Part shown: positions 25,014-47,701 of the stretch, piece after piece
Position numbering within the stretch: position 1 is the stretch's first letter
Layout of the letters: each line of letters opens with the position of its first letter
From: an uncultured Lentimicrobiaceae bacterium
GTDB taxonomy: Bacteria > Bacteroidota > Bacteroidia > Bacteroidales > UBA4417
NCBI GenBank assembly: GCA_964420555.1
Contig: CAYQTT010000014.1
Span: 23,686-87,685, forward strand
Length of the DNA stretch: 64,000 bases
Direction: 5' to 3'
The notes under the pieces: model-generated
What the model saw: only the letters and a program-made list of their open reading frames with translations
Database searches by the model: none
What the model was told of the DNA's origin: nothing
Position numbers and translations under genes: made by a program

Positions 25014-25451
25014 TGCTAATTTGTTGCTATACATGTTTTACTCCAAACCTATTCCAGTTTTATTTTTTATTTCATTCACGATGGAGAGTCGTTTTGTTTT
25101 ATTAAATAAAAATATTTTGGATTCATAGTCATTCATTAACGTATTGAAATATTGATTATAATGTGAATAATCAATACGTTGTGATCTTATTTTCTTACAA
25201 CTATCATCTTTCATGATTTGTAATAGGCCCAAGGCTAAGTGATTGCATTGTGAATATTGGCCTAAACGTTATAGATTTATTGAATATCAAAGAGATCTAT
25301 TGCAATTCTATTGCAGGAGATAATTATAATGAAAAATGCAGCTTGCCTGAAATAAAGTAAACTGATTGATGAATAGAAATTAAGAAGTATCCTATATTTG
25401 TTGAGGCATTAAGCGAATGCCATTGTAATTTATAAAGAATTCCATATCAAG

Positions 25452-28400
25452 ATGAAGTTTTTCCAGAATTCCGTACTCAATAAACATCTGAAAGCACAGG
25501 ACACTCAAGCTATAAAAGCTGCCTACGCAAAGTTCACAGCTCATTTTCATGATGCCGGAATACAGGAAAACATACGTAACAGCAAGGAAGAGCAATACCA
25601 GGGGGAGTTTCTGATTGATTTGTTTGTTAATGTGCTGGGCTATACCAAGAACCCGGCACCAAATTTCAATATTACTACCGAATATAAAAATGTAAAGGAC
25701 AGTAAAAAGGCAGACGGCGCAATTATTCTTCCGCGGGAGCATGCTCCCACGGTAATTGCGGTTATTGAACTTAAAGGAACAGAAACCACTGATTTAAATC
25801 GAATTGAAACCCAGGCTTTCGGATATAAGAACAATCAGCCCGAATGCGTATATGTGATCACTTCCAATTTCGAAAAGCTGCGTTGCTATATCGATAACGC
25901 GATTGAGAATATTGAGTTCAACCTGTTTACGCTTACCGAAAAAGAGTTTGAATTGCTGTGGCTGTGCCTGGCATTTGTAAATATTGAGAAAAATCTAGCT
26001 AAGCGGATAAAAGATGAATCGGTAAGCCAGGAAGATGTTATTACCAAAAACTTGTACAACGATTATTCGCTGTTCAAAAGGGAACTGCACCAAAACCTGG
26101 TGGCGCTCAATCCGGATCATGATCCATTAACACTTTTCAAAAAATCGCAAAAGCTGTTGGACCGGTTCCTGTTTCTCTTTTTTGCCGAGGACAGGCAACT
26201 GTTGCCGCCTAATTCGGTGCGACTTATACTGGACGATTGGCGCGAGCTGCAAGTCAGAGACGTGGAAATAGCCTTGTATGCCAGGTTTAAAAAGTATTTT
26301 GAATACCTTAATACAGGCTTTAAAGGAAAACGCTACGATGTATTTGCATACAACGGCGGTTTGTTTAAAACCGATGAACTGCTGGATGGTTTGAAAATAG
26401 ATGATGAGTTGCTTTACAGACATGCAATGAAGCTTTCAACGTATGACTTTGTTAGCGAAGTGGATGTAAATATTCTGGGTCATATCTTCGAAAACTCTTT
26501 AAATGATCTCGACGAAATAAAAGCACAACTCGAAGGGCAGCAGGTGGATAAAGCCAAAAGCAAGCGCAAAAAGGAAGGCGTTTTTTATACGCCCAAGTAT
26601 ATTACGAAGTATATTGTCGATAATACGGTAGGGAAACTTTGCACTGAGAAAAAAGCCGAAATCGGGCTTATTGAAGAAGAGTTTATCACCGACCGGAAAC
26701 GCACCAATAAAACCAAGCAGCCTTTATTTGATAAGCTTACTGCCTACCGCAACTGGCTTTTGCAACTCACCATCTGCGACCCGGCCTGCGGATCAGGAGC
26801 GTTCCTGAACCAGGCGCTCGACTTCCTTATCAATGAACACCGCTATATTGATGAATTGCAGGCCAAGCTTTTCGGTGATGCGATGGTGCTGAGTGATTTT
26901 GAAAAGAACATTCTTGAAAATAACCTGTTTGGAGTTGATTTAAACGAGGAAAGCGTTGAGATAGCCAAGCTCTCCTTATGGTTGCGTACAGCGCAGCCTA
27001 ACCGCAAACTAAACGATTTAAATAACAATATCAAATGCGGCAACTCGCTGATTGATGATCCGGCTGTGGCTGGTGACAAGGCTTTTAACTGGCACAATGA
27101 GTTTCCTTCTGTTTTCGCTAAAGGTGGATTTGATGTGATGCTTGGGAATCCGCCGTATGTGCAGCTCCAAAGTATGGGCGAAATGAGTGATATACTCAAA
27201 AATTGCGGTTACGAAACTTTTGATAAGGGTGCCGACCTGTATTGCATTTTTACCGAACGTGGCTATCAATTACTCAAAAATGGTGGTGTGCAATCATTTA
27301 TTATGCCTAATAAATGGATGTTGGTTGCTTATGGTAAACCACTTCGCAAATTCTTGTCAAAAACAGGCTTGTGCCAGGTGTTAAACTTCGGTGACATACA
27401 ATTCTTTCAGGAAGCTACAACTTACGTCTGCATTTTCGTTACACAAAAAAACAAGCCATTCGATAACGTTAAAGTATTGTCACTTAATCAGAATACTTAT
27501 CATGGAGACTTTTTGACGGAGGCAGCAAGCAACATTTACAACTATAGAGCATCCAAATTTGGTGATGAAGAATGGAGTATACAACCTTACAAGGATGCTC
27601 AAAAGTTGGAGCAGATGAAATTAAGGGGCATTGAACTAAAAGATTTGCCAGTAAGCATTAACTATGGGATAAAAACAGGTTTTAACGACGCTTTTTTTAT
27701 TGATGAAAAAACGCGGAATAAGTTGATTGCTGCCGATGGCAGTAGTGCAGAACTTATTAAGCCAATGGTGCGTGGAAGAGATATTTCAGCATATGGAATA
27801 ACTGGTTTTGAATATTTGATCGGCACATTCCCTTCTCTAAAATTGGATATTGAACATTATCCGGTCATCAAAAAACACTTGCTTTCATTTGGATATGACC
27901 GACTGAACCAAACCGGCGAAAACGGTGCCCGCAAAAAGACCAATGGCAAGTGGTTTGAAACACAAGACAGTATCAACTATCATGAGGAATTCGCCAAACC
28001 TAAAATCATCTATCCAAATATGACTTCTGTTTTCCCATTTATACATGATGAAACGGGAATGCTAACAAATCAGAAATGTTTTATTCTAACAGCACATGAT
28101 GATTCTGTCTCATTATTGTTCTTAACAGCTATTTTCAATTCTTCATTGGCAAAGCTTTGGATATGGTATAATTGTCCCGAACTTCAAGGAGGTACTCGCG
28201 AAATCAGTAAAGTATATTTCGAGCATTTCCCCGTTCCACAAGCTAACGAAGAACAATCGGCTATGCTTGCACATTGCACAATTGAACGTACCCGATTAAC
28301 TGCCAGCCTGGAAATCCTTACCTCAAAATTCCAGCGTACTATCCAGCGTAAATTTAATCTGGAGGAATTGCCAGGCAAATTGCAAAACTGGTATTTACTT

Positions 28401-28613
28401 TCCTATACTGAGTTTATTACCGAACTGGCAAAAAAGAAAGTTAAACTATCTCTTTCGGAAGAAGCCGAATGGGAAGCTTACTTTTTACAGGAAGCAAAAA
28501 AAGCACTTGAGTTTAAATCTGATATCGATAAAACTGATAAGGAAATTGACAGGATGGTATATGACTTGTATGGGTTGACGGAGGAGGAGATAGGGATTGT
28601 GGAGGATAAATAA
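25452..28613 (+). CDS. Type IIG-like fused restriction endonuclease / N6-adenine methyltransferase
   Basis: N-terminal ADG...VIELK nuclease, DPACGSGAFL and NPPY MTase motifs, TaqI-C-like target recognition region. -7 box TATATTTG at 25393-25400. Confidence 0.9.
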   Translation: MKFFQNSVLNKHLKAQDTQAIKAAYAKFTAHFHDAGIQENIRNSKEEQYQGEFLIDLFVNVLGYTKNPAPNFNITTEYKNVKDSKKADGAIILPREHAPTVIAVIELKGTETTDLNRIETQAFGYKNNQPECVYVITSNFEKLRCYIDNAIENIEFNLFTLTEKEFELLWLCLAFVNIEKNLAKRIKDESVSQEDVITKNLYNDYSLFKRELHQNLVALNPDHDPLTLFKKSQKLLDRFLFLFFAEDRQLLPPNSVRLILDDWRELQVRDVEIALYARFKKYFEYLNTGFKGKRYDVFAYNGGLFKTDELLDGLKIDDELLYRHAMKLSTYDFVSEVDVNILGHIFENSLNDLDEIKAQLEGQQVDKAKSKRKKEGVFYTPKYITKYIVDNTVGKLCTEKKAEIGLIEEEFITDRKRTNKTKQPLFDKLTAYRNWLLQLTICDPACGSGAFLNQALDFLINEHRYIDELQAKLFGDAMVLSDFEKNILENNLFGVDLNEESVEIAKLSLWLRTAQPNRKLNDLNNNIKCGNSLIDDPAVAGDKAFNWHNEFPSVFAKGGFDVMLGNPPYVQLQSMGEMSDILKNCGYETFDKGADLYCIFTERGYQLLKNGGVQSFIMPNKWMLVAYGKPLRKFLSKTGLCQVLNFGDIQFFQEATTYVCIFVTQKNKPFDNVKVLSLNQNTYHGDFLTEAASNIYNYRASKFGDEEWSIQPYKDAQKLEQMKLRGIELKDLPVSINYGIKTGFNDAFFIDEKTRNKLIAADGSSAELIKPMVRGRDISAYGITGFEYLIGTFPSLKLDIEHYPVIKKHLLSFGYDRLNQTGENGARKKTNGKWFETQDSINYHEEFAKPKIIYPNMTSVFPFIHDETGMLTNQKCFILTAHDDSVSLLFLTAIFNSSLAKLWIWYNCPELQGGTREISKVYFEHFPVPQANEEQSAMLAHCTIERTRLTASLEILTSKFQRTIQRKFNLEELPGKLQNWYLLSYTEFITELAKKKVKLSLSEEAEWEAYFLQEAKKALEFKSDIDKTDKEIDRMVYDLYGLTEEEIGIVEDK

Positions 28614-28815
28614 TTGAGCTTTTAAAATGCGATACAAACATGCTTGTAAATATTTATAAACTATTTGCCATACCTGCTTTTATTTCATTAATATTGTAGT
28701 GTTCAAGCGATTAGAGTATTGTTAATTTGTAGATGTTTGAACTATCATAAGCTCTTTGGATTTAGGCTTTTTACTCGTCTTATACCTGCATAGGCAAATC
28801 AATAAATCTGGTACA

Positions 28816-29454
28816 ATGGAATTTTCTGATTTTACAATTAGGTTAATAATAATCTTAATTCCTGGAGCAATCGCAACGCTAATTATTGAATCAATAACAA
28901 TTCATAAAAGTTGGTCGCACCTTAGATTCACTGTCAGTTCAATAATTTTAGGTGGTACATCATTCGGTATTTTACAGCTTTTGTATTGGGGATTCCAACT
29001 TTATCAAAGTAGATGCATTGATATTAAATTTGAAAATTTGCAGACCTGGAAAAGCATCTTCAAGAATGAAAATGCGTTGAATCCAATTGAAATAATTCTA
29101 AGCGTACTTATATCTATCGCTCTAAGCTATTGCGTTTCATACATAATACAACATAAGATTCTCTTCAAGATTGCTAAAAGATTTAATGTATCTAGAAAAT
29201 ATGGAGATGATAGTCTCTATTCACATTACTTGAATGCCGATGAGGTCGATTGGGTTTATGTTAGGGATAAAACCAACGGAATGACATACTTAGGACAAGT
29301 TGATTCTTGGTCGGAAGATGATTCAAATAAGGAATTGTTACTCAGAAATGTCACTGTATTTAAGTATGAAAACAGCGACGAGCTCTATAAAATAAAACAA
29401 ATTTATCTCAAATTTCATGAGAGAGATATTATAATCGAATTACCTGAATACTAA
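28816..29454 (+). CDS. DUF6338-like membrane protein
   Basis: LIPG in TM1, three to four TM helices, C-terminal WVYVRD...YLG...WS beta domain; ATG at 28816. Confidence 0.6.
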   Translation: MEFSDFTIRLIIILIPGAIATLIIESITIHKSWSHLRFTVSSIILGGTSFGILQLLYWGFQLYQSRCIDIKFENLQTWKSIFKNENALNPIEIILSVLISIALSYCVSYIIQHKILFKIAKRFNVSRKYGDDSLYSHYLNADEVDWVYVRDKTNGMTYLGQVDSWSEDDSNKELLLRNVTVFKYENSDELYKIKQIYLKFHERDIIIELPEY

Positions 29455-29470
29455 CTAAAATTTAATTGCT

Positions 29471-29620
29471 ATGGCAGATCGAGATCACAAACCAGCAGTG
29501 CCTCTGCATGAAGGTGTTGAAAAAGCGGAATCTAAACCTGTAAGAGATACGCGGCCACCACCACCGCCACCACCACCTGTTAAACAAGATAACATACCGC
29601 CATCTCCTAAAAAAGATTAA
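29471..29620 (+). CDS. 49-aa polyproline peptide (not in ORF track)
   Basis: MADRDHKPAVPLHEGVEKAESKPVRDTRPPPPPPPPVKQDNIPPSPKKD*, 16 bp after the DUF6338 stop; the Pro run uses mixed codons (CCA/CCG/CCT). Confidence 0.6.
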   Translation: MADRDHKPAVPLHEGVEKAESKPVRDTRPPPPPPPPVKQDNIPPSPKKD

Positions 29621-29783: not shown

Positions 29784-30149
29784 ATGCAAAACGATTCAGT
29801 TTATGCTTATCTTCAGGGTTCCAATTATGAAATATTCATGCACAGAGCCTTCAGAACATCCAATCGTTCCAAGCCTGGCATGGATGGATCAACAATGAAA
29901 AATCTAATTGATGCTGAAAATGGCGAATCATGGGTTAGACACCTTGGCTCATTTGAGAAACAACTAACTCAAATAAAGTTCTATATGAATAAAGCATTAG
30001 ATAAATATTTGGACATGAAACTGCCGGTTGAAAATCTTGTAGCTGTAAGCTTAATGAAATTGAGATTAGATCAAGCTAATTCTTCAGCTGTAATAATCAA
30101 TATAATTGATGAAACAATTGAATTAACGCAGATAGTAAAAAATTATTGA
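29784..30149 (+). CDS. Hypothetical helical protein
   Basis: 121-aa ORF with ATG start in an AT-rich context; no motif recognised. Confidence 0.55.
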   Translation: MQNDSVYAYLQGSNYEIFMHRAFRTSNRSKPGMDGSTMKNLIDAENGESWVRHLGSFEKQLTQIKFYMNKALDKYLDMKLPVENLVAVSLMKLRLDQANSSAVIINIIDETIELTQIVKNY

Positions 30150-30214
30150 TGCTACTTAAATAGGTCTTTCCCTTGTGCCGGAAATCCTGTTTGGGAATTT
30201 TACTTTGAGCGAAA

Positions 30215-31426
30215 ATGATATTTATGAATACAGTTAAAATTGGAGATACGTTTGAGAAAAAATCACATGATGTGATTGTAAAGGCTATAGAGAATGGTGA
30301 ATTGGGTATCTCTGAATCAGCATCAAGAGTATTTCAGAAAAAGGGTTATTATTCTCGTGACAGAGAGAAAGCTATAATATTTGATTTGTCAATTGAAGTA
30401 TGGCCTACAAATGCAGAAAGGTATACATTGCTGTATTTAATTGAATGTAAAAGTTCAAACTCAAAGAAAGTACCTGTTGATGATATAGAAGAGTTTTATT
30501 CCAAAATTATCCAAGTTTCCGGGGTCAATGTTAAAGGAGTCTTGATTTCTGACAATTCATTTCAGGAAGGAGTTGTGACTTTTGCAAAAAACAGAGGCAT
30601 CATGCTAATTGAAGTTAGCAAAATAGGAGAACATAATATTATCCTACACAGAACCAATCGGGGTATTGATGATATAAAAGACAAGGATATTGATTCAATT
30701 TTTGAAAAATTTATAAAAAGGGCTTTTGGGCCCCAAAAAATAGAAGGATTACAAAAACTATCATCAGATCAAATTGAAAATAAGGCAAATATTTTACATA
30801 GCGAATATTCAAGAAGCCGAAAACCAATTGTAATAGATGAGTTTATTGAATTTGTAACTCAAAAATATGGACTCAAGATTGATTTAATATGTGATCTGGA
30901 GACAATAAACGGGAAAAAGATTTTGGGATATTACTCAGTTAAGGAAAATACAATCTTTCTGGACCAATCACTTTTACTTACGAATCAAACAGCATTTGTA
31001 CTAGGTCATGAATTAGGCCATTTCTTTTTACATAAAGAATTGACTGTAAATCAGGAATTGTATAATGATTTTGAAGATTCAGAATATGATTTCTTTGCAG
31101 ACAAGCATATACTTAAAAACGACAAAAACTGGATCGAGTGGCAAGCAAATCGATTTGCGATCTCTTTGTTTTTACCTTCAGATTTGTTCCTTTATCATTT
31201 ATGTGACTACAGACAAAGTATCGGAATTAGTAGATACTTTCATATTTACTTGGATAACCAAAGGATTAATCAAGATGATTACAGGAAAACCGTTGATCAT
31301 CTGGCATACCTTTTTGGAATAAGTAAAACAGTCGTCAAGTATAGGATTGACGAATTAAAGATAATTACGCATGCAGAATCCAAGAATGATATTGGAAGTC
31401 ATATCAGAAGATTTCTGTTAGAATAG
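30215..31426 (+). CDS. Restriction-endonuclease-like domain fused to ImmA/IrrE metallopeptidase
   Basis: N-terminal FDLSIE...LIECKS and VPVDDIEEF (Mrr-like); C-terminal HELGH (HExxH) and EWQANRFA. Confidence 0.8.
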   Translation: MIFMNTVKIGDTFEKKSHDVIVKAIENGELGISESASRVFQKKGYYSRDREKAIIFDLSIEVWPTNAERYTLLYLIECKSSNSKKVPVDDIEEFYSKIIQVSGVNVKGVLISDNSFQEGVVTFAKNRGIMLIEVSKIGEHNIILHRTNRGIDDIKDKDIDSIFEKFIKRAFGPQKIEGLQKLSSDQIENKANILHSEYSRSRKPIVIDEFIEFVTQKYGLKIDLICDLETINGKKILGYYSVKENTIFLDQSLLLTNQTAFVLGHELGHFFLHKELTVNQELYNDFEDSEYDFFADKHILKNDKNWIEWQANRFAISLFLPSDLFLYHLCDYRQSIGISRYFHIYLDNQRINQDDYRKTVDHLAYLFGISKTVVKYRIDELKIITHAESKNDIGSHIRRFLLE

Positions 31427-31483
31427 ATAGAATAATTCGATTTAATAATTTTAGGGATTCTTCTTTGATTCTTACAATACTAA

Positions 31484-31921
31484 TTACAATAATTGAATTA
31501 CCTGACTTTCTATATTAACCTCTCTGAATTCATCTTTCCACTCAAATTTGAGTTCAATTTTGTCCGGAAAATTATCAACAAGTGCAATTGTAATTTCAAT
31601 GGACTGTTGCGGCCTGAGATCAATAGGACAAGGATTATTCATTACTTCATACAATTCATTTTCAGGGATAGTAACATTTACTGACCTGGCAATAGATTTG
31701 CCTGTGTTACAAATAATTATTCCATTAAGACCATCTCTTTTTTTTAAAACTTTCGCTTCCAGAATTGCACGAAGCGATTCAATTTTCTCTTTCTCAACTT
31801 TTTCAATCTGATATGCATTGATAAGCTTTTGCTGTTTTTTAATCTTCCTATCATGATTAAAATAGGTAAAGGCGGATAAAGATAATGCCAGAATTGAAAT
31901 CACTATTCCTGCTATTTCCAT
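31484..31921 (-). CDS. Hypothetical protein with N-terminal TM helix, coiled coil and beta domain
   Basis: IAGIVISILALSLSAFTYF TM segment, then a K/E-rich helix and a beta-rich C-terminus. Confidence 0.65.
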   Translation of the reverse strand: MEIAGIVISILALSLSAFTYFNHDRKIKKQQKLINAYQIEKVEKEKIESLRAILEAKVLKKRDGLNGIIICNTGKSIARSVNVTIPENELYEVMNNPCPIDLRPQQSIEITIALVDNFPDKIELKFEWKDEFREVNIESQVIQLL

Positions 31922-31971
31922 TTTAACGAGGTTATTAAATGACTATTTTTAATTTATAAGTATTTTAAATT

Positions 31972-32907
31972 TTAGTCTATTTGTGTTTGCAGATCTTTAG
32001 GCAAAACAGGAAAAGATAAATCGAAATTTTCCAGATCTGAAAGAAAAATAGTGAGTAAACGCTTTGCGTCAGCCAAATCTGTCCTTTCTGGACGATTTAA
32101 ATGATTTTGGAGATCACTGTATTTATTTTTGACCTGGATAGATAACTGAGGGATCTGTAATTTCTTTGATTTTATATACAGAAATTTTAAAATTAATAAT
32201 CCTAAACATGTGATATTGAAATTTTTAAAGTGAATAGTTGAGTCGTAGACTAATGTAGATGCAATACCAATGCATTGATTGCCAATTTCAATCAGTTGTT
32301 CATTGTTTTTCTGATCATTACTACCAGGGAAGAATTTTGTTGTTAACGAAAAAATGGTTTGTGCCATTTTTGTAGGTAGTCCACTACGTGTTTCATAAGA
32401 AACTAATGAGAGAAAAGAAAATACTTCAAATGCAATTCGTGAATTATTGAATTCGGAGAATTTATTTAATTTTTGAATAATGTAATTTCGATCCATTAGA
32501 ATACACTCATAGTATTCTTGCTTAATTCTGGTTATCTCCATTAAAACAAGAGCTGATGTGGCAGCTAAAATTAAATCTTCTGAAGTGAGATTTGCTATGG
32601 GATTATAAAGCTTTTTTAGTGAATTATTTCTATCATTTTGAATAACTGCGTAATGATGTTCTCGAAATTTGATAATTGCTTTTGGAGTAAGCTTTTTGCG
32701 AAGACTTCCTGTTACTGTTGCTTCGTTATGACAATCAAAACATAATAGGGCTAGATTTTCAAATTCATTATTTGAATTATTTCCGTCAATATGATGCATA
32801 TGGTCGCCACGCTTTTGGTCAACGCAGCAGAGCCTATTTGATTGAAAAAGCACTTCAGCTTCAATGTCTGCAGGAATTTTTATTCTTTTCGTTTTTTGAA
32901 TACTCAT
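31972..32907 (-). CDS. HNH endonuclease domain protein with helical C-terminal region
   Basis: CCVD...HMHHIDGNNSNNEFENLALLCFDCHNE; probable start at ATG 32907. Confidence 0.8.
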   Translation of the reverse strand: MSIQKTKRIKIPADIEAEVLFQSNRLCCVDQKRGDHMHHIDGNNSNNEFENLALLCFDCHNEATVTGSLRKKLTPKAIIKFREHHYAVIQNDRNNSLKKLYNPIANLTSEDLILAATSALVLMEITRIKQEYYECILMDRNYIIQKLNKFSEFNNSRIAFEVFSFLSLVSYETRSGLPTKMAQTIFSLTTKFFPGSNDQKNNEQLIEIGNQCIGIASTLVYDSTIHFKNFNITCLGLLILKFLYIKSKKLQIPQLSIQVKNKYSDLQNHLNRPERTDLADAKRLLTIFLSDLENFDLSFPVLPKDLQTQID

Positions 32908-33068
32908 ATAATTTTGGTTATTATTTTGCATTAGCTTAATTAATTCTGTTTGACTGACATATATTATTTATAATTATAGCTAGTTTTATAATCGAATTTG
33001 CAAACTACATTTCTAAACAATTTACTAAGGATTATCAATTCATAAGTATAACAGGTTTTGATTAATCA

Positions 33069-36863: not shown

Positions 36864-36991
36864 CTAAACAGGATTTTGGAGAAAAGTGTTAGCATATTTT
36901 AACTTCAAATATATGTTGATTTTCTTCATTTTACTACTTGCTTTTAGATTAGTTTTAAACATCTTAATATAGCATTATTACAAAATACAGC

Positions 36992-37317
36992 TTATAAACT
37001 ATTTATAAATGTCTTTTTAACAACAGGGATTTTGAAAGTATATAGTTTCTTTAAATGTTTGATTAATTGCTCGTTTGTTAAAGATTTTTCAATATCGTCT
37101 AATACAAGAATTCAAGCTTCTTTATGCTCGTTAATGAAGTTGTAATTTAATTTGAATTTAATAAGTTCTTTTTACAGTTAAATGGGTCATTAATCTAATA
37201 TGGTGTTGAAAATTTCAATTTTTTTTTAAACAATACTTTAAGTCCATTTTTTGTTGAAAGATATTTATACACGATTGGATTCTCATGCCCGATCTGATTT
37301 ATATCAATAAAGTTCAT
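36992..37317 (-). pseudogene. Decayed DUF2971-like gene
   Basis: Manual translation MNFIDINQIGHENPIVYKYLSTKNGLKVLFKKKLKFSTPY*INDPFNC (TAG at 37195-37197), with further stops or shifts downstream. Confidence 0.55.
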
Positions 37318-37457
37318 CTTGCGACAATAAATTAAGAATTCCTGATGCTAAATGAAAGTGTAAAAATTATTCCAATACATTTTCGAAACTGAATTTAAAT
37401 TTTTAAATATAGACTTTAAAAATGACCTATAGAAACTGAAGTGCTCCATGCCTTTTA

Positions 37458-38246
37458 TCAAAGCTTTTCAAGAATCACAGCCCTGATCAATTTAAAAGCG
37501 GTATCCGGATTATACTCTGTATTAATCCTCAAGAGTCCCAGGATATCTTTACGGAATTCCAGATCGTTCATTTTGTTTTCCATATTGCTGATAAAGTCAT
37601 CACGCCGGATGGTTCGCCCTTCACTTTTCATGTATTCCTGATACGTTTTTATTATTAAGGCTATATCGGGATTGAGATTTGTGAGAGCATACCAAAGATC
37701 GAAGAGATCGCGGCCTTTGCGACGTTGATATAGTGCCCGGAGTTTTGTAGCCAGCAGTTCTTCAATTTTGTAAGTGCGGATATTGGCCTGCCCTGTAAAC
37801 CACGAATTGCTGATGTTCACTGGCATTTGATGATAACCCAGTACTGAAAAATGTTCACGGCAATTGATTTCAATTTTCAATTTCATTTTACGAACCGGTT
37901 CTGTTTCTGTGAGGTAGCGGTAATTCATTGTGGTCATGGAATCGCCCCTATCCACAGTGATTTTGCCATCAATGAAAGATAAAACTTTACGGAAGCGGGA
38001 AAGAACATCTCCAATCGGGGCCGGTGTTACCTGCACCAGGTCAATATCTTCGGAATACCTCACTTGTGGATGAAGCCATAATTTATGCAAAGCTGTTCCT
38101 CCGCGGAATGCAAGCTGTTCGGCCAGGAACTCGTCCTGATAGATAGCAATCAAAGCACGTTCGATAATAAGATCCTGTTCGACCTGTGCATCATCCGGCC
38201 ATTGGGCATTTTCCTTCCATTCGGTAATATAATTGCGTGGTATCAT
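37458..38246 (-). CDS. abiEii: AbiEii nucleotidyltransferase toxin
   Basis: QVEQDLII, AFRGGTALHK, RYSEDIDL, KLRALYQRRKGRDLFDL. Confidence 0.92.
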   Translation of the reverse strand: MIPRNYITEWKENAQWPDDAQVEQDLIIERALIAIYQDEFLAEQLAFRGGTALHKLWLHPQVRYSEDIDLVQVTPAPIGDVLSRFRKVLSFIDGKITVDRGDSMTTMNYRYLTETEPVRKMKLKIEINCREHFSVLGYHQMPVNISNSWFTGQANIRTYKIEELLATKLRALYQRRKGRDLFDLWYALTNLNPDIALIIKTYQEYMKSEGRTIRRDDFISNMENKMNDLEFRKDILGLLRINTEYNPDTAFKLIRAVILEKL

Positions 38247-39052
38247 ATGTCGCTTTCAACCTCCATATTTTTAATCAGTTTCCAGCGTTGGGAAACTTCC
38301 CCTTTTCGCTCTTTGCTTGTGGATAACGGAACCGGATGAATTTTTCGATCTGCTAACGCTTTTTCGACAGCGGCAGCCAGTTTTTCATTACCTAATTCAA
38401 TGTCCAGCAGATATCCTAGGCGCTGTATTGCAGCAGTAACCGGAAAACGTTTTGCAGTTTGTAACAAAACCGAAGGCTTCATTTCTTCAGCAAGCTCGCT
38501 AATAACGGCAGTTGCCCGATTGATAACCATCCAATTATTAAATAAAAGCAAATCAAGAGCGGTTAATTCCGGGGAAGAAACGTTAATATAACCGGCTTCG
38601 GTTTTTTTCTGGATGATATCGCTAACATCCCAGGAGTTTTTTACAAGGAAATTTATAGCAATCTTTCCAGTACTAATCTTACGCAATGCAGGTGGCCTGG
38701 TAATAATAAATGATTCCATAGGTTGCTGATGCGAAGATCCATGAAGAGCAGCCGCAGAAAGCAACCCTATATAATAAGGCTTTCCAAGCCATTTCATCAT
38801 CTGATCGATGAAGAAATACAAAGGGAGAATTCCCGAAGAAGCATACTCAGGCGGGATAACCACAAAGAAACCTTGCCGAACCTGTGCAATCTGGCCTTTT
38901 GATTTTAATCGGAAAAGGCTTTGGTTGATAGCATTTTCAGATATTGAGAATTTTGATCGCAGTTCATCCAGTGTGAAGGCATAGCGGCCTTTCCCTCTTA
39001 TTTTAAAGAGGTATTCCTGAATATTGGAAGCTGAAGCATGATCTATTTCCAT
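38243..39052 (-). CDS. abiEi: AbiEi antitoxin (type IV TA)
   Basis: wHTH start, YYIGLLSAAALHGSSHQ, VSSPELTALDL; 4-bp overlap with abiEii; probable start at 39052. Confidence 0.9.
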   Translation of the reverse strand: MEIDHASASNIQEYLFKIRGKGRYAFTLDELRSKFSISENAINQSLFRLKSKGQIAQVRQGFFVVIPPEYASSGILPLYFFIDQMMKWLGKPYYIGLLSAAALHGSSHQQPMESFIITRPPALRKISTGKIAINFLVKNSWDVSDIIQKKTEAGYINVSSPELTALDLLLFNNWMVINRATAVISELAEEMKPSVLLQTAKRFPVTAAIQRLGYLLDIELGNEKLAAAVEKALADRKIHPVPLSTSKERKGEVSQRWKLIKNMEVESDI

Positions 39053-39165
39053 ATTTGTGCGTAATTGCGTAATACTACGTTTTTCGTAATAATACGCAAA
39101 TGTAAACATTTTATTGTTGCGTTACTTAAAAGGATAAAATTAATGTACAAACCAGAGGTGATAAA

Positions 39166-39404
39166 CCAAATTATAAAACAGGGTAGGCAGGGTAGACACT
39201 TTTGGGCAAAAGGTTTTCGAAATTTCATAAAAAAGCTTCTGAATCAATAGAAAGATGGGCAAAAGCGAAGGAAAAATAATGAATTTTCTGCGCACTAATT
39301 TTTTCTTCTGTTTCGCTTGATGCAGTCTGGTTATAGAAAGAATTTTAAAAATAGTTATTTTTTTTAGTGAGAATTTGCCTACCCTGCCTACCCTGTACCT
39401 TACT
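39166..39404. repeat. Origin-like element copy 1 with 20-bp terminal inverted repeats
   Basis: CAGGGTAGGCAGGGTAGACA (39179-39198) and TGCCTACCCTGCCTACCCTG (39376-39395) around an AT-rich core. Confidence 0.85.
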
Positions 39405-40060: not shown

Positions 40061-40396
40061 ATGAATAATCCAAAATTTCAAGTTTTCAAAAGTAATGCAA
40101 ATGCTCAGTATTATTACAAATTACGAGCAACTAATGGTGAAGTAATTTTAAGTGGTGAAGGTTATACCACCAAGCAAAACTGCCTAAATGGAATTACATC
40201 AGTAAAAGCCCATGCTCCTTATGACCAGTACTATGACAGGAAAGATGGTTATAATAATTACACCTTTAATCTTAAAGCTAGAAATAGTGAAATTATTGGT
40301 AGAAGTGAGAACTATACAACACGGGTGAATCGTGAAAATGGAATTGCTGCCGTAAAAAAGGATGCTCCTATTGCTCCAATTGAAGATTTAACTTAA
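40061..40396 (+). CDS. yegP: YegP/DUF1508 tandem-domain protein
   Basis: Two repeats of F.L.A.NxEII..SE.Y. Confidence 0.88.
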   Translation: MNNPKFQVFKSNANAQYYYKLRATNGEVILSGEGYTTKQNCLNGITSVKAHAPYDQYYDRKDGYNNYTFNLKARNSEIIGRSENYTTRVNRENGIAAVKKDAPIAPIEDLT

Positions 40397-40455
40397 TCTG
40401 TTAAACTACAAGGATTAAGTAAAGCAGTCATTTCTTTTTATAAAAGAGTAATACA

Positions 40456-40694
40456 CCAAATTATAAGCAGGGTAGGCAGGGTAGGCACTTTGGGGCAAAA
40501 GATTTTCGAATTTTACAAAAAAGCTTCTGAATCGCTAGAGGGACGGACAAAAGCGAAGAAAAAAATAAGATTTTTTTTTGTAGACTATTATTAACATCTG
40601 TATCGCCTGAAGCTGTAGGATTGTAGAAGGAATTTTCAAAAAAGTTATTTTTTTAGTGAGAATTTGCCTACCCTGCCTACCCTCTACCTCACTT
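40456..40694. repeat. Origin-like element copy 2, immediately downstream of the virE-like gene
   Basis: AGGGTAGGCAGGGTAGGCA (40469-40487) and its perfect inverse at 40665-40683; alignable with copy 1 over its whole length. Confidence 0.85.
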
Positions 40695-40709: not shown

Positions 40710-42959
40710 TTAAGAAAGTGAGTCGTTGAATGGCAAATCTACCTGTATTTCAATAGGTTGGGCTGGTGAATTAGCTTCAGTTTTAGAGGCATTTCCCGAA
40801 AATTCTTCAATCATAGAGCGATTCCTAGATTCGACCTCTTCCCACTGAAGTTCATGGAGAGCATAAAGCAATTTGCCATTAGATTTAAACCGATGATAGT
40901 TGTTTTTGATAAGAGCTTTTCCAAGTTTGTTAACTGAACTATCGGAAACATTAATTTTAGCTTTATCAGCCAGTTTTGCCAGAATTTGTGATGCTGTCAG
41001 GAATACGTTTGCTTGCTCTTTTGTGCAAGACTCAAACCAGGTCAACAATAATTCTTCTTCAGGGGACCGAAGCTGGTACTGCTCATTGTTCTGGTTAATG
41101 GCTCCAATTTCATCCCGGTTGAACCAAAAGCGGAAACCGGACTTAAAAAGATGTAAAGCCTGGGAGTAAACATCGTTAAGAGATACTTTGTGGTCGTATT
41201 GAATATCAGTAACTTCGAAGGAAAGGAATCGACGGGAACCGGTTGTGTCGTTGAGAAATTGGGCAGTGTTTACACTACCGGCGAAGCTGGCACAACGTGG
41301 AAGTGTTTCGTTGTTATGTCCGTATGCCCGACGGATCCGGATATGAGTTTTAGTGATCAGCTCTTTTAAGCTGCCAATCTCACTTCGGTTCAGGTTTTCA
41401 AGCTCATCGAGATTTATTAACATGCATTCGGAAAGATGGATCAAGGTATCCTTGTTGTTGGGATTAATGGTTCCTGAGAAAAGGTACTGCTTTAATTCTA
41501 TTGGAATAAGATTTTCCATCCAGGTTGTTTTACCAACACCTTGCTTGCCGGAAAAGACGATTACTGTTTGGTTGATGGTGTGTTCGTCAAGGACACAACC
41601 AACCATTGCAACTAACCATTTTTTGAAGCAGGTGTGCCAGAGTTCCTGATGGGTGGTTGTGATGGTATCGGCAAGAAGGGCAATGTGATCGGTTTGTTCA
41701 TCCCAGAAAGGAAGGCTTTCAAAGTATGTTGTGAAGGGATTAAAGAGTTCGCAAAAGTCAGAATACAATAAATTCCGTAATCCGGACATATTGGTTTTGA
41801 CTTTGTTTTTAAGCAGTTCACGAAGCATTGAGTTTTCGATATAGTCGTTCACCTGGTGCCAGACTTTTTTAGTTATGAAACGATATTCAAGACGGCCAGT
41901 TATGGTATTGTTGCGGAAACGGTATTTGAGGAGAAGGAAGTTTTCTACTCGGTCGATGGCGGGGATACGTTTTTTAGGTGCTTCGTCTTCGGTATTTTCC
42001 TCTGTGGCAGCTGGAATAACCTCACCTCCCGGCCTCCTCTCCTGGAGGAGAGGAGATGACTCTGCTTCACTTTTTATGCCATGTTCAGATCTATTTTTAT
42101 AGGCACTATTTACAGCCGCCATAACTTCTTTCTCATCGAAGTTATAATCGGCCAGGATAAAGCCAAGAGCTGCAGCGAACTGCACTCCACTTCTATTCAG
42201 ATTGCAAGCCAGCTGATGAACAAAGTTATTGCGGCTGCCTGTGGTGAAAGATTCATTGTGTTCAGTGAGTTTGATGGAGTCGTGGTATATTTTCAGGTAA
42301 TCTTGCTGTGGAATTACTGTAGGCTTGACTTCACCATCTGGCTCTATTTTCCCGTCAAGCGGGGACTGGTTCTGAGTGTTAGGGCGTGAATCTTCGTTTG
42401 AACTCTTACTTGAAAGAGTATTTGTGAAAACTTGTGCATTAGGATTATGGTAAAGATCCGGATCAACGGACATGAAACAGAGCCGGGTGTAATCCTTACC
42501 AGATTTGTCGATAGGCAAACCGGTGAGTGATTCGTAGTAAGACTGAACAAGCAAAAAAGTATTCTTGTGCGTTGATGGTGTAGCCTGTGTTTGAACAAAA
42601 ACCTTGAGGCCGTTTCCTGAAGGGCTGATGAAAACTGCCATGGTAAATTGATCGTCCATGACCGATTCACGGCATTTTTTCAATTGTTCCGGACTGAGTT
42701 TGTCGAAGTCCAGTACAATGATGCCGGAATACTTTTTAAGAGTTTCCTGGTTGCGGCCACCTTCGAATTGACCGGAAGGTGTGAAAGCCAGTAATCCCTT
42801 CTTGGCTTTCTCGTACGATTCAAGCTTTTGCTCCTGCAGACACTTCCGGATATAAGTGACTGGTCCGCGGTACTTGCCGCTTTTGATATCAGTGAGTATA
42901 TCGACGAAGGGCTTATTCTCGGTTATGTTGGTAAAGTTTTGGAATATGGAGAGGTTCAT
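40710..42959 (-). CDS. VirE-family primase-helicase (BT4734-like N-terminus, SF3-like P-loop domain)
   Basis: FTPSGQF, SGIIVLDFD, FISPSGNGLK (primase-polymerase-like); GKQGVGKTT, INLDEL, DTTGSRRF. Confidence 0.88.
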   Translation of the reverse strand: MNLSIFQNFTNITENKPFVDILTDIKSGKYRGPVTYIRKCLQEQKLESYEKAKKGLLAFTPSGQFEGGRNQETLKKYSGIIVLDFDKLSPEQLKKCRESVMDDQFTMAVFISPSGNGLKVFVQTQATPSTHKNTFLLVQSYYESLTGLPIDKSGKDYTRLCFMSVDPDLYHNPNAQVFTNTLSSKSSNEDSRPNTQNQSPLDGKIEPDGEVKPTVIPQQDYLKIYHDSIKLTEHNESFTTGSRNNFVHQLACNLNRSGVQFAAALGFILADYNFDEKEVMAAVNSAYKNRSEHGIKSEAESSPLLQERRPGGEVIPAATEENTEDEAPKKRIPAIDRVENFLLLKYRFRNNTITGRLEYRFITKKVWHQVNDYIENSMLRELLKNKVKTNMSGLRNLLYSDFCELFNPFTTYFESLPFWDEQTDHIALLADTITTTHQELWHTCFKKWLVAMVGCVLDEHTINQTVIVFSGKQGVGKTTWMENLIPIELKQYLFSGTINPNNKDTLIHLSECMLINLDELENLNRSEIGSLKELITKTHIRIRRAYGHNNETLPRCASFAGSVNTAQFLNDTTGSRRFLSFEVTDIQYDHKVSLNDVYSQALHLFKSGFRFWFNRDEIGAINQNNEQYQLRSPEEELLLTWFESCTKEQANVFLTASQILAKLADKAKINVSDSSVNKLGKALIKNNYHRFKSNGKLLYALHELQWEEVESRNRSMIEEFSGNASKTEANSPAQPIEIQVDLPFNDSLS

Positions 42960-43117: not shown

Positions 43118-43447
43118 TCATCTGGCAGCAGGCTTCTTCGAAATCCTGCTATTCAGACGAATTGTACTTTTACTTGCAAAGGCATTGTTATAATGCTTTT
43201 TGAGAAACATTTCAATATCAGCCTGGGTGTAATAAATCTTGGCTCCTACCTGAGAAAATGAGATTTTACCTTCATCGCGCCAACGTTGTGCAGTGCGGGA
43301 GGCGATTTTCATTGTAGAGATGAAATCATCATTGTCGATAATCAGGTCCCTGATGCTTTTGGATGATGGTTGCAGGCGAAGATTGATTTCTTCAATTTTG
43401 TCCATGAGTTTCTGGTACTGTTCTGGTGTCATGAAAATTGCTTCCAT
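43118..43447 (-). CDS. Excisionase-like helix-turn-helix protein
   Basis: IDNDDF...IASRTAQRWRDEGKISFSQVGAKIYY; probable start at 43447. Confidence 0.85.
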   Translation of the reverse strand: MEAIFMTPEQYQKLMDKIEEINLRLQPSSKSIRDLIIDNDDFISTMKIASRTAQRWRDEGKISFSQVGAKIYYTQADIEMFLKKHYNNAFASKSTIRLNSRISKKPAAR

Positions 43448-43495
43448 AGCTTTTTTTGTTAAAAGATTAGGAAGCAAAAGAAAATAAGAAAAAAA

Positions 43496-43794: not shown

Positions 43795-44706
43795 TTACTC
43801 TTTAATATTATTAATTTTATATCGTTTGTGAGATTTTGGCCTTTTATCAGGACGATTAGGATCGAGAATGGTCATGACTGTAGGGCGAGAAATTGGATTT
43901 CCCTCTTTATCGAGGATGTGTTGGCATAGAATATCAGCCAGGTCAGATACTGTTATGGATAGTAATGGGCTCGTACCGACTTTTAGTTCGTTGGTCAGCT
44001 GATATATCATATCCAGAAACGCATTGGTATTAAAGTTAATCTTTCCTTTTGGATTGATTGTAGAAGATTGCTTTTTAGCTGATTTTTTTTCTTTTACCTT
44101 TTGGAGCAGCCCTTCTTCATCAACCAAATTGTTGATTTCAAGTTTACATTGCTTATCGAATTTTTGTTTAAAAGTAGCTACCCATTCAGGAGGATGTTGA
44201 CGATAATTCTTGATCTGAGTCTTTAGATAAAGTATTTTCTCTTCAGCTGTCTCCATCAACTTAATATTATCCATGACATCTTCAAAACAGTAAACCCTAT
44301 CTCCACTATATCCATTTAATGAACTTTTCAGTTTCTGTTCCCTGGCATATTGCATGGCTGTAACCTTGAGCTCGTGGCGCTTTGAAATAATTTCAGAACC
44401 CCATTTAATTTGCCGAAATTTCTGGCCATCATCGTTGAACCAAATCTGATTTAATCTTAAAAGCTTTTCCAGAGAATTTAACCAGGATATTGGACTTTTA
44501 AGGATTTCGCAATGATGGTCTAGAAAATCTACAATTTCAGAAAGACCAATTGTTAAGACCTTTCTGAAAATTGCCAGGCAATATGCATTCGAAGAAATTT
44601 CACCTTCGAGGATAATATCCAAAACTGTAGTGTTAGCCTGATTGGGCTTCACAAAGTTGTACTCCGGAAAGTGAACCGTATTGATGTTGTCGGGATGTAA
44701 GTCCAT
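43795..44706 (-). CDS. Element-core hypothetical protein, possibly an RteC-like regulator
   Basis: 303-aa ORF between integrase and xis; C-terminal helical region (DLADILCQHI...ISRPTVMTILDP) could be an HTH. Confidence 0.5.
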   Translation of the reverse strand: MDLHPDNINTVHFPEYNFVKPNQANTTVLDIILEGEISSNAYCLAIFRKVLTIGLSEIVDFLDHHCEILKSPISWLNSLEKLLRLNQIWFNDDGQKFRQIKWGSEIISKRHELKVTAMQYAREQKLKSSLNGYSGDRVYCFEDVMDNIKLMETAEEKILYLKTQIKNYRQHPPEWVATFKQKFDKQCKLEINNLVDEEGLLQKVKEKKSAKKQSSTINPKGKINFNTNAFLDMIYQLTNELKVGTSPLLSITVSDLADILCQHILDKEGNPISRPTVMTILDPNRPDKRPKSHKRYKINNIKE

Positions 44707-44990
44707 AGCGCGTTAACAATAGCGTGTTAAAACTTTGTAGGGTAAAGGATGTATTAAGCATTAAATAGGATCATTATAGATTAGAGTTTTTCAAATATTA
44801 ATATAAAATGAAAAACACGCTTGAACAACTCGTTGACCAGAAAAATATAACATTGTGAAAGTAAAAAGAAGTATTGCCAAGACTAAAAATGACATTAAAA
44901 GAATGATATTAACGCCAACCAGATCTAAAAAATTGTTAAATTGTGTTAATATATTTGAAGCATTTTGCAGGATAAGAATTTAGGAGAATT

Positions 44991-46259
44991 TTAAGTGACA
45001 AGAGTTGTATTAGGGATTTCTTCCGAAGCTTGGGTTTTGTCATCCGTTTTCTTAATATTGAATACCTGCATCGCTTTATTGAGCTCTTCATTTATGATCT
45101 TGGCATAAATCTGAGTTTCAGAAATATCGGCATGGCCGAGAATTTTTGAAACCTTGTCGATGCTGATTCCCTTAGTAAGTGCCCTGGTTGCCCAAGTATG
45201 GCGGCTTATATGGAAACTTACTTTTTTAGTAATTCCGGCATCTGATGCAAGCAACTTCAGATTCTTATTAATATAGGCCGTGGCTGACGAAATCTCATTA
45301 TCCATCACAATGATATCATCACGTTTAAGATCATTACTCAACATCGGAAAGATATAATCTGTTGGCGTTGTTTGATTCGTCTTGTATTTACTAATTATCT
45401 CAATTGCCTTATCCGGAAGTAGGAATGAAAGCTGGGCTTTTGTTTTCTGGACTGAAACATGGATGTTTTCCCCATCAAAATTAGCCCAGGTTAATTTTAA
45501 CACATCAGATACCCTGAGGCCACCAGCATAAGAAGCAAAAACAAACATATCCTTGTGCAATTCAAGACGGGTACCAGGCTTAGTTTTGACTTTTTCGAAT
45601 GCTGCCAATTCATCTTCGCTGAGGTACTCCCGATGAGTTTTCTCGGTCTTTAATTTGTACTTATTGAAAGGTATTTCTTTGTGTTCAATCAAATCCATAC
45701 GATAAGCATCATTGAAAAGCTTTCGGATAAACTTCATATCCTTATTGATTGTATTGACTTTATTTTTGAGTTCCACCTGGCAGTCAATTTCATATCTTGT
45801 CAGGAATTCAACATCAATATCCTGGAAGTTCAAGGGCTTTTCTTCTACGAAGTCTTTAATCTTTTTGATTATGGATTTATTCTTGTCATAGGTACCTACC
45901 TGTCCAGCCCGGAGGTATGCTTCGCATGCTTCATCAGCAAACTTGAAAAAGTTTGTTGGTTCAGGTCCATAAATCAAGTTTTTCAGATCTTTAACCGTTA
46001 GCGACTTTATTTTGGTTTCGCCATCTAGAACTCCTGCTTCCAAATCATCCTTCTGCTTATAGATATATTTATTCAGGCGCTGCCAGTTGGGACATCCTTT
46101 CTTAATTAAAGCCTTTTTTGGATCCCAGAACTTGGGATCTACTTTAACATGTGTCGGGATCTTTTTATATTTCCTATCTTTGATGATGCAAAGATTGATT
46201 GGAGCTTCACCTTTTTTATTGATGCGATCCGTTCTTAGAATTACTGTAACCGTTGCCAT
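44991..46259 (-). CDS. Tyrosine recombinase/integrase (Bacteroidota arm-binding type)
   Basis: Catalytic R (GLRVSD), K (VQKT), HxxR (HISRH), H (LGH) and Y (TQIYAK); N-terminal arm-binding domain; probable start at 46259. Confidence 0.95.
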   Translation of the reverse strand: MATVTVILRTDRINKKGEAPINLCIIKDRKYKKIPTHVKVDPKFWDPKKALIKKGCPNWQRLNKYIYKQKDDLEAGVLDGETKIKSLTVKDLKNLIYGPEPTNFFKFADEACEAYLRAGQVGTYDKNKSIIKKIKDFVEEKPLNFQDIDVEFLTRYEIDCQVELKNKVNTINKDMKFIRKLFNDAYRMDLIEHKEIPFNKYKLKTEKTHREYLSEDELAAFEKVKTKPGTRLELHKDMFVFASYAGGLRVSDVLKLTWANFDGENIHVSVQKTKAQLSFLLPDKAIEIISKYKTNQTTPTDYIFPMLSNDLKRDDIIVMDNEISSATAYINKNLKLLASDAGITKKVSFHISRHTWATRALTKGISIDKVSKILGHADISETQIYAKIINEELNKAMQVFNIKKTDDKTQASEEIPNTTLVT

Positions 46260-46308
46260 AGCTATGTTTTTTATTGATTGTATAAAGGTACAAAATAATG
46301 TAATACTG

Positions 46309-46602
46309 GGGAAACATAGTGGGAAACATTTTTGTAAAACTCTGAATTTTTGTGGCTTCAGTTGGCTTAGCCAAAATTCTATGTATTTGATATACAATTA
46401 CATAAAAGACTATAACGGTAAAAGACAGACATAATTGTGATCCTATCGGGGTCACCGGTTCATCAGTTAACCACTTATCAGTTAAATACTTATAAGTGGT
46501 TTTTCTTTTTTACATTCAAATTTACATCTACTTATATAGTATTTTAACGGTATATAACTGCTTTTATTGATTGAACAATGAAAACATGCCAATTGTTTCC
46601 CA
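46309..46602. other. att region: arm-type repeats, symmetric core and hairpin
   Basis: GGGAAACAT at 46309 and 46321; core GTGATC-CTATCGG-GGTCAC at 46437-46455; hairpin AACCACTTAT/ATAAGTGGTT at 46469-46501; inverted TGTTTCCCA at 46594-46602. Confidence 0.6.
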
Positions 46603-47700: not shown

Positions 47701-47701
47701 T

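Follow-up and report, generated by a model that had tools for sequence, protein, structure and literature searches.

In Staphylococcus aureus pathogenicity islands (SaPIs) and other phage-inducible chromosomal islands (PICIs), the replication origin is located 3′ of the replicase gene and contains two groups of short iterons that flank an A+T-rich stretch; the iteron sequence varies with the replicase variant. Among the NBU elements of Bacteroidota, NBU1 targets tRNA-Leu and NBU2 targets tRNA-Ser, and the primase gene of NBU1, PrmN1, belongs to the excision-proximal module. We know of no phage satellite that has been demonstrated in Bacteroidota. The phage-inducible minimalist islands (PICMIs) of Vibrionaceae are a few kilobases long, are located beside fis, and have a virulent helper phage (PMC10803314). 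Their genes are ordered as integrase, an unknown gene, an alpA-type helix-turn-helix (HTH) gene, a primase gene of the DUF5906 class, and a slot for restriction-modification (RM) or other defence genes, and they lack capsid-remodelling and packaging genes (PMC10803314). The AgaPP elements of Flavobacteriia carry a VirE-N (BT4734-like) PrimPol beside an integrase, together with a prokaryotic Argonaute (pAgo) and defence genes, and were noted as probable replicative elements; they have a separate PriCT-DUF3987 helicase and a pAgo of the long-B class, and no att sites, origin, or end modules were defined for them (PMC11724360). VEIMEs and tycheposons are marine tRNA-targeting elements that occur in capsids and vesicles, and concatemers of them were obtained from virus particles (10.1101/2022.07.26.501625). 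Here we compare with these systems an integrated island of an uncultured Lentimicrobiaceae bacterium, part of which lies in a 64,000-nucleotide stretch of contig CAYQTT010000014.1 (C14), referred to as the window.

The segment at positions 25,318–46,455 of the window is, on balance, probably the integrase-proximal, defence-loaded part of an island in tRNA-Arg(TCT), which belongs to a widespread Bacteroidota family and has its partner tRNA about 83 kb away. Islands of this kind, which are integrative, self-replicating, helper-dependent, and serve as defence hotspots, are already known, and the one described here would be a variant. Six-frame open reading frames (ORFs) of the window were scanned against Pfam and PADLOC, and those of the element also against PHROG and NCBIfam. 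The conserved core comprises four genes on the reverse strand. The gene at 44,991–46,397 (−) encodes a tyrosine integrase with an N-terminal arm-binding domain (Pfam Phage_integrase (PF00589), E = 1.5e-22; Phage_int_SAM_5, 2.8e-16; Arm-DNA-bind_5, 2.3e-15). The true start of the integrase is likely the ATG at 46,259, and the protein is called as 422 aa on metagenome contigs. The next gene, at 43,795–44,706 (−), encodes a conserved core protein of 303 aa without a family, which we call u303. It is followed by the gene of an AlpA/Xis-like HTH_17 protein at 43,118–43,477 (−), which matches PF12728 with 28.9 bits against a cut-off of 27 (1.4e-6) and has a weak match to a PHROG excisionase/regulator family (3e-4). 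The fourth gene, at 40,710–42,959 (−), encodes a primase-helicase that combines a BT4734-like archaeo-eukaryotic primase (AEP) domain, PriCT_1, a VapE/DUF5906 P-loop helicase, and DUF3874 (Pfam VapE-like, 1.9e-39; BT4734-like_N (PF08800), 8.1e-35; DUF5906 (PF19263), 6e-11; PriCT_1, 2.9e-5), and matches PHROG DNA helicase/primase families. A sequence-only reading of this DNA had proposed a minimal integrative core of integrase, unknown regulator, Xis, and primase-helicase, and the Pfam matches bear this out.

When species-representative genomes were searched with the primase-helicase, 24 loci were recovered, from Bacteroidales, Lentimicrobiaceae, Chitinophagaceae, Flavobacteriia, Sphingobacteriales, and Weeksellaceae-type genera. 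The order integrase, u303, HTH_17, primase is kept in most of the loci that are long enough to show it, and defines a family of more than 20 Bacteroidota loci; in L034, L035, and L038 the integrase match is absent or several kilobases away. The HTH_17 protein is kept in all family loci, and u303 is encoded between the integrase and HTH_17 genes in 16 related loci, with identities of 26–73%. The structure of u303 predicted by AlphaFold2 (pLDDT 84) is mainly helical. The protein has no family match; its best match among PDB sequences (E = 0.026) is an unrelated enzyme, and its best PDB fold match has an E-value of 1.2. None of these searches bears out the name of regulator that the sequence-only reading gave to it. 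Three more paralogues of the primase are encoded in the same genome, on contigs C9, C32, and C1. The family is widespread and spans Bacteroidales, Flavobacteriales, Chitinophagales, and Sphingobacteriales.

The island shares with PICMIs the order of its genes, the defence slot after the primase, and the lack of recognised packaging genes. The SatelliteFinder model for PICMIs (PMC10803314) has four genes, and the island carries three of them, the integrase (PF00589), AlpA (PF12728), and the primase (DUF5906); it also has an extra gene between the integrase and the alpA-type HTH relative to that model. It is not a PICMI, because it is not integrated beside fis: its core is the 3′ end of tRNA-Arg(TCT), and the segment is flanked by an HxlR gene on the left and an Arr gene on the right. 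The island also differs from PICMIs in its fused BT4734-AEP/PriCT/VapE replicase with an iteron origin, in the size of the family islands (20 to more than 80 kb), and in a far-end module of two genes, p267 and p152; it is known here from genes and contigs, that is, in its integrated form.

The likeness to SaPIs and PICIs is one of layout, with the origin directly 3′ of the replicase gene and iterons that co-vary, whereas the host phylum and the integrase family are different. No Stl-type repressor, terS, ppi, cpm, or capsid gene was matched in Pfam or PHROG among the ORFs of at least 100 aa between 25 and 47 kb. Matches to the P4-like satellite families psu, sid, delta, and epsilon were likewise absent from the Pfam and PHROG results; a cos site was not searched for. 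Like AgaPP elements, the island has an integrase, a BT4734-family AEP primase, a helicase, a tRNA site, and defence-rich surroundings, and its sister copy on C32 carries a pAgo, not assigned to the long-B class, together with a Type III RM system. Unlike in AgaPP elements, the primase and helicase form one polypeptide with a VapE/DUF5906 ATPase, and this copy has no pAgo. VEIMEs and tycheposons resemble the island in their tyrosine integrase, AlpA/excisionase, primase-helicase, and defence cargo, and some of them occur in Flavobacteria, but no member of the island family was found in a particle data set.

The right end of the island is at 46,455. The att core at 46,440–46,455 (+), ATCCTATCGGGGTCAC, matches the 3′-terminal 16 nt of the tRNA-Arg(TCT) gene of the same genome without a mismatch (16/16 identical to the gene at C16 c[12529-12602]; ARAGORN, whole genome). 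The same position is occupied by the end of tRNA-Arg(CCG) in L026 and L037 and by the end of tRNA-Lys(TTT) in L028, L029, and L031, and the C1 copy has the end of tRNA-Asn(GTT) beside its core. Since tRNA 3′ ends recur at the same spot by the integrase gene, the family inserts in the 3′ ends of tRNA genes, with at least four targets (Arg(TCT), Arg(CCG), Lys(TTT), and Asn(GTT)). Three independent results agree on the position of the right end. In runs X4 and X8, one from activated sludge and one from seawater, contigs follow the integrase gene and the P arm and diverge exactly after 46,455. The DNA at 46,456–46,540 (+) is host DNA, the displaced region downstream of tRNA-Arg(TCT), and includes a terminator hairpin at 46,468–46,510 with 89% identity to the one that follows the tRNA-Arg(CCG) gene of the same genome (C20:2554-2590). 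In the metagenome relatives L085 and L086, an intact tRNA-Arg(TCT) is directly joined to a homologue of 46,456–46,540 (77–78% identity over about 90 nt), which is the unoccupied tRNA-B′ site of a classical tRNA island; in L086 the histidine-kinase flank on the upstream side of the tRNA is shared as well. The integrase side of the island is therefore a junction of P arm, core, and host-downstream DNA.

Two direct repeats GGGAAACA in the P arm, at 46,309–46,328 (+), fit arm-type sites for the arm-binding domain of the integrase and are candidates for this role. They are kept as two copies of ATGTTTCCC upstream of the integrase gene in L026, L027, and L029, and co-varying forms are present in L031, L037, and L028. 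An interim end of the island, based on the stop of L026 homology at 46,526 and a TGTAnnTTT motif, was ruled out, as the DNA past 46,455 is the displaced tRNA-downstream region of the host. A conserved small RNA next to the integrase gene, suggested by a hairpin and U-run, was dropped, since this hairpin is the tRNA terminator. The hairpin that now follows tRNA-Arg(TCT) on C16 is another one, which belongs to the island. The first gene past the displaced region encodes an Arr-type rifampin ADP-ribosyltransferase (46,704–47,141).

The sole partner of the core in the whole genome is the intact tRNA-Arg(TCT) gene on contig C16. Reading from this tRNA, C16 carries a hairpin, arm-like repeats GGGAAA(T/C)AT, a truncated SNase-like frame (read by eye), and the genes of a 267-aa protein (p267) and a 152-aa protein (p152) at C16:10470-11740. 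Beyond this pair, other genes occupy about 8 kb, after which come a third origin copy, the last 50 codons of a primase gene, and about 2 kb more before the contig ends. The p267/p152 pair is also present at the tRNA-Lys end of the L029 island (G031:C1 ~3465000-3466300), where the two proteins are 98.5% and 95.4% identical to those on C16, although the two islands occupy different tRNAs and their cores are only 57–89% identical (integrase 72%, u303 57%, primase 75%). Judged from these identities, the far-end module seems to pass from one island to another. In L034–L036 the pair is 50–56% identical and is located 4–8 kb from the primase gene, in loci where no tRNA is seen. Homologues of p267 number 803 at E ≤ 1e-5; of the 120 listed, nearly all have a length of 267 aa, and Pfam domains are absent from all of them. 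A confident model of p267 consists of helices and a beta-sandwich, the similarity of which to other structures is that of a generic beta-sandwich; there was no meaningful PDB or viral fold match. The idea that p267 is a capsid-like protein is not supported by the fold searches.

The end of C16 overlaps the start of C14 by exactly 55 nt, in the predicted orientation, and no other pair of contigs in the assembly overlaps in this way. The adjacency of C16 and C14 is likely. If the two are joined, the distance from the tRNA to the core is 82,687 bp, and this interval has a G+C content of 0.358, within the lowest 0.8% of windows of equal size. The repeated core and the intact tRNA-Arg(TCT) are both present and co-oriented, on two contigs linked only by the 55-nt, repeat-containing overlap. 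The G+C content is 0.352 in C14 1-23685, 0.352 in window positions 1–25,317, 0.350 in 25,318–46,455, and 0.397 in 46,456–64,000, against 0.403 for the genome; it steps up at 46,455 and not near 25.3 kb, and the low-G+C tract is unbroken from the start of the contig to 46,455. Intervals of comparable length occur in other members of the family. In the complete chromosome of L029, the intact tRNA-Lys and a 17-nt copy by the integrase gene are 54.9 kb apart on the same strand. On C1, a 3′ fragment of tRNA-Asn(GTT) by the primase paralogue (C1:253914) is 93.7 kb away from the intact tRNA-Asn at C1:347641-347716, on the same strand, and C1 may hold a second very large composite island. The C1 interval between tRNA-Asn and its copy holds SusC-type genes. 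A 45-nt repeat is present in the genome in 52 copies, at C14:1-50, at C14:1384-1454, and at 50 other sites, with clusters on C23, C5, C24, C36, C13, and C2. The repeat is also highly abundant in contigs from metagenomes, and it breaks assemblies.

The left limit of the segment, at 25,318–25,451, is a breakpoint of DNA common to other genomes and not an att site. Homology to L026 stops at about 25,333 and fades by 25,245, and a seawater contig (X14) matches from 25,318 rightwards and has other DNA before it. The breakpoint has neither a copy of the core nor a step in G+C content. There is no second copy of the 16-nt core in the 64-kb window, and ARAGORN found no tRNA anywhere in it. The sequence-only reading had drawn a self-contained element of 21.4 kb, from 25,179 to 46,602, and neither end is borne out. 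The left end rests on an 11/12 repeat (TTGTGATCTTAT / TTGTGATCCTAT), which is close to chance expectation, and the right end is in fact at 46,455, where the contigs from other studies diverge. No exact direct repeat of 11 nt or longer is present at the drawn ends; the 11/12 match TTGTGATC(C/T)TAT, rejected as a candidate att repeat at about chance level, takes in P-arm bases outside the tRNA core. The segment has one att junction, its partner is probably the tRNA on the next contig, about 83 kb off if the overlap of the contigs is real, and low G+C content continues past its left limit. With a single junction and a partner at this distance, the 21-kb unit would be unable to excise alone. It is probably the integrase-proximal quarter of a composite island and not the unit of mobility. 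Window positions 1–25,317 are probably further cargo of the same composite island and not ordinary chromosome, as we infer from their low G+C content and from the lack of a core copy between them and the tRNA. Within them, positions 12,004–16,461 form one ORF of 1485 aa that combines an AcrB-type RND transporter with two outer-membrane efflux (OEP) domains.

The module at 40,448–40,693, which ends 17 bp from the stop codon of the primase gene, on its 3′ side, is a candidate replication origin. Its iteron sequence is GGGTAGGCA. Two tandem 9-mers CAGGGTAGG at 40,468–40,485 and two inverted ones at 40,667–40,683 are separated by an A+T-rich spacer of 177 nt. By a strict test, 9 of 21 family members have this architecture, with 9-mers that co-vary, directly after the primase gene; among the controls it occurred in one of 1050 shuffled segments and in none of 386 windows taken elsewhere in these loci. 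From this analysis, the module would be the replication origin of the island. A second origin-like copy at 39,158–39,404 has iterons CAGGGTAGG/CAGGGTAGA at 39,179–39,196 and two copies of CCTACCCTG at 39,378–39,395; it is 75–84% identical to the first copy, and its inverted tandem 9-mers are likewise 177 nt apart. The two copies flank a 1-kb insert with a DUF1508 (YegP-like) gene at 40,061–40,396 (+) (Pfam, 1.5e-36), whereas L026 has a single copy and no insert. The third copy, on C16 beside the 3′ remnant of a primase gene, has identical iterons. The origin module is thus duplicated around the DUF1508 insert and recurs on C16, and it seems to act as a point of recombination at which cargo is exchanged.

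The cargo slot downstream of the primase was compared by scanning 102 ORFs from 17 related loci. The commonest families are M and S subunits of Type I RM, Type IIG enzymes, C5 methylases with Vsr, ResIII, GmrSD, HATPase_c_3, SLFN_AlbA_2, and AAA_15/21; McrBC occurs once. In the genome studied here, the sister copy on C32 has a Type III methylase, a pAgo, and a probable Res helicase-nuclease (read by eye), and that on C9 has a Dcm-type methylase, HATPase proteins, and MzaB. The primase paralogue on C1 is followed by SusC-type genes, so defence cargo is not directly beside every copy. The cargo next to the core is variable and dominated by RM and other defence families over the 17 loci and two sister copies. 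With the core followed by the iteron origin and then by variable RM and defence cargo, the claim of the sequence-only reading that the locus is a defence hotspot therefore holds.

The comparison with L026 shows how this slot differs between relatives. Most shared genes are 85–97% identical, and a 6-kb block at 31,429–37,456 (genes of a 145-aa protein, an HNH protein, an nSTAND3 NTPase, and a DUF2971-like remnant) is missing from L026, in which the stop codon of AbiEii is joined to that of the M78 gene over 183 bp. In the place of the 232-aa gene of the window, L026 has an unrelated ORF of 220 aa, a cassette swap. The 121-aa ORF and the M78 fusion are 97–98% identical in L026, against 85–90% for the flanking genes, which suggests a recent exchange of this pair or a strong constraint on it.

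The cargo of the segment begins with a Type IIG RM enzyme of the MmeI/Eco57I type at 25,452–28,613 (+), which matches PADLOC REase_MTase_IIG PDLC03609 over its full length (E = 0) and Pfam Eco57I (9.6e-48), MmeI_Mtase, and TaqI_C, with MmeI_hel and MmeI_N below the cutoff. A paralogue of this enzyme is encoded outside the window at C12:18172-22524, with an additional C-terminal fragment after it at 22366-22524. The two are 89% identical over residues 1–555 and 83% at the C-terminus, and the target-recognition part is replaced, a difference that may reflect specificity swapping between copies. The next ORF in the segment, of 232 aa (28,756–29,454 (+)), had no match in Pfam, PADLOC, PHROG, or NCBIfam and is followed by a small polyproline ORF at about 29,471–29,617. 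A two-gene module at 29,784–31,426 consists of an ORF of 121 aa without a family (29,784–30,149 (+)) and a 403-aa fusion protein, the C-terminal half of which contains an ImmA/IrrE M78 peptidase domain (30,215–31,426 (+); Pfam Peptidase_M78, 1.4e-10; PADLOC capP, 1.3e-12, and a weak match to RmrA).

The remaining cargo genes are on the reverse strand. An ORF of 145 aa without a family (31,484–31,921 (−)) is followed by an HNH protein (31,972–32,931 (−); Pfam HNH, 1.8e-4) and by an nSTAND3 NTPase of 1264 aa (33,069–36,863 (−); Pfam, 1.1e-11), which had no significant match in PADLOC, the single marginal one being mad8 (E = 0.009). AbiEii (37,458–38,246 (−); PADLOC, 6.7e-107; Pfam, 1.2e-37) and AbiEi (38,243–39,109 (−); PADLOC, 8.1e-94; Pfam AbiEi_1, 4.6e-26) form a type IV toxin-antitoxin or abortive-infection pair at 37,458–39,109 (−). 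Pfam and PADLOC thus confirm the genes that had been named from the sequence: RM, REase-peptidase, HNH, NLR, AbiE, VirE primase-helicase, Xis, and integrase. The DUF2971 remnant proposed in the same reading is plausible as an N-terminal fragment at about 37,198–37,347 (−), a placement read by eye. Frames in the gaps between genes, read from stop to stop, contained nothing beyond the polyproline peptide and the DUF2971-like start, and Rfam had no match at E ≤ 1 over 24.5–47.5 kb.

The ORFs of at least 100 aa in the segment include no relaxase, type IV secretion system, terminase, portal, or capsid family, in agreement with the absence of relaxase, secretion, terminase, and capsid genes remarked upon earlier. 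In the whole genome, which is 96% complete, there was no match to Bacteroidetes TraG or the PF03432 relaxase, for which control genomes were positive (B. thetaiotaomicron for PF03432), and none to Terminase_6N, TerL_ATPase, or Phage_portal, to which control genomes also responded. No close relative was found among GenBank phages or in IMG/VR. One IMG/VR record, L052 (IMGVR_UViG_3300046002_010546, 18.7 kb), is a relative with 55% identity; it is filed as viral and contains the family core, two methylases, a nuclease, UmuD/UmuC, and no virion genes. UmuDC is also present in L044. Small faecal contigs labelled 'Bacteriophage sp.' encode a primase that is only 24–27% identical, and no integrase. 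Since no route out of the cell is recognisable in the island, its transfer would require an outside helper, which could be a virulent phage or a conjugative element that enters the cell.

These results can be combined into a model of the island. Its fixed end module comprises the integrase, u303, HTH_17, the fused BT4734 primase/VapE helicase, and the candidate iteron origin directly 3′ of the gene of the latter. The variable cargo slot begins at the origin, and the p267/p152 pair is located at the tRNA end on C16 and in the tRNA-Lys island of L029. The integrase together with HTH_17, and perhaps u303, would recombine the 16-nt core with the tRNA copy and give rise to an excised circle. The primase-helicase would bind its own iterons and replicate the circle, which may then be transferred by the outside helper, phage or conjugative. 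Cargo would turn over by recombination at or beside the origin module.

Several observations weigh against a composite island that extends from C16 to position 46,455. The first 45 nt of the 55-nt overlap between C16 and C14 belong to the 52-copy repeat, no read or contig spans the join, and the public assemblies all break at that repeat. The genes at window positions 1–25,317 are housekeeping-like (an RND pump, lipid-synthesis enzymes, DsbA), and NmrA-HxlR is present in genus relatives with 59–75% protein identity. No excised circle or empty site was found in the same species, where contigs covering either junction all span it; contigs that carry the exact HxlR or Arr protein all hold the element, four further runs span the left junction, and X1 spans the right one. 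The one run with raw reads, X21, lacks the organism. The p267/p152 end module has no assigned function, and the function of the origin, excision, and replication are read from layout. Genus relatives were too diverged for synteny to be informative, and Arr is not located beside tRNA-Arg(TCT) in them.

Some of these observations would fit an immobilised fragment, in which a rearrangement at the repeated origin and primase separated the integrase end from the tRNA end, positions 1–25,317 are ordinary chromosome, and the 21 kb are a stranded defence island. The housekeeping-like left flank, the passage of the C16-C14 join through a repeat, and the fixation of both junctions in metagenomes from several studies are as this explanation would have it, and the three origin copies with identical iterons, one of them by a primase remnant, show recombination at the module. 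We nevertheless consider it unlikely, as the tRNA and the copy of the core have the same orientation on either side of the sole exact 55-nt overlap of contigs, the low G+C content is unbroken from the start of C14 to 46,455 and then steps up, and two other family members have equally long intervals between tRNA and core.

The composite island has also to be weighed against an integrative mobilizable element of the NBU type, moved in trans by a conjugative element of Bacteroidota through an unrecognised oriT. NBU1 and NBU2 share with it a Bacteroidota host, a tyrosine integrase, a core of 13–16 nt that is the 3′ end of a tRNA, and small proteins and a primase by the integrase gene. The arm-binding integrase acting on a short tRNA-3′-end core and the position of the primase gene in the excision-proximal module, as for PrmN1, thus speak for this explanation. 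Against it, neither the element nor the genome has a PF03432 relaxase or Bacteroidetes TraG, and no relaxase is among the top 25 cargo families listed for the 17 relatives. The island has no mob relaxase of its own and no oriT recognisable by sequence, it carries defence and not resistance cargo, and its helicase and iteron origin, by which it differs from NBUs, point to autonomous theta or rolling replication and not to transfer replication. An NBU-type element is, on this evidence, quite improbable. Least probable of all, and hardly to be expected, is a self-contained PICMI-, PICI-, or P4-like phage satellite of about 21 kb with ends near 25.2 and 46.6 kb and helper-induced excision, replication, and packaging: the three PICMI model genes with defence cargo after the primase, the SaPI-like origin 3′ of the replicase, the sharing of 25,318–46,455 with other genomes with breakpoints at both ends, and a genome without matches to three prophage hallmark families, as would fit a virulent helper, are outweighed by the single att junction with no core copy or tRNA near 25.2 kb and a repeat at chance level, the lack of a G+C step at 25.3 kb, the failure to find terS, capsid, portal, or size-redirection genes, the absence of virion genes from the sole IMG/VR relative and of close relatives from phage records, and the family islands of 55–94 kb between tRNA and core copy.

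The fixed module of integrase, u303, HTH_17, primase, and origin provides a computational anchor for collecting cargo slots and, from them, new defence systems. Candidates for such systems in the segment are the 232-aa and polyproline pair, the pair of the 121-aa protein and M78 fusion, and the block of 145-aa, HNH, and nSTAND3 genes. The composite island can integrate and probably replicate, yet it has no recognisable exit route, in a host without a match to the five hallmark families that were searched. It is conceivable, if doubtful, that the family consists of true satellites of virulent phages across Bacteroidota, targeting tRNAs and replicating from iterons, in which u303 and p267/p152 serve to detect the helper and take over its packaging. 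Phage heads would in that case carry anti-phage genes through Bacteroidota in portions of 20–90 kb. Should the mobility of the family match what its distribution suggests, it would be a main vehicle by which anti-phage genes spread among Bacteroidota of the environment and the gut.

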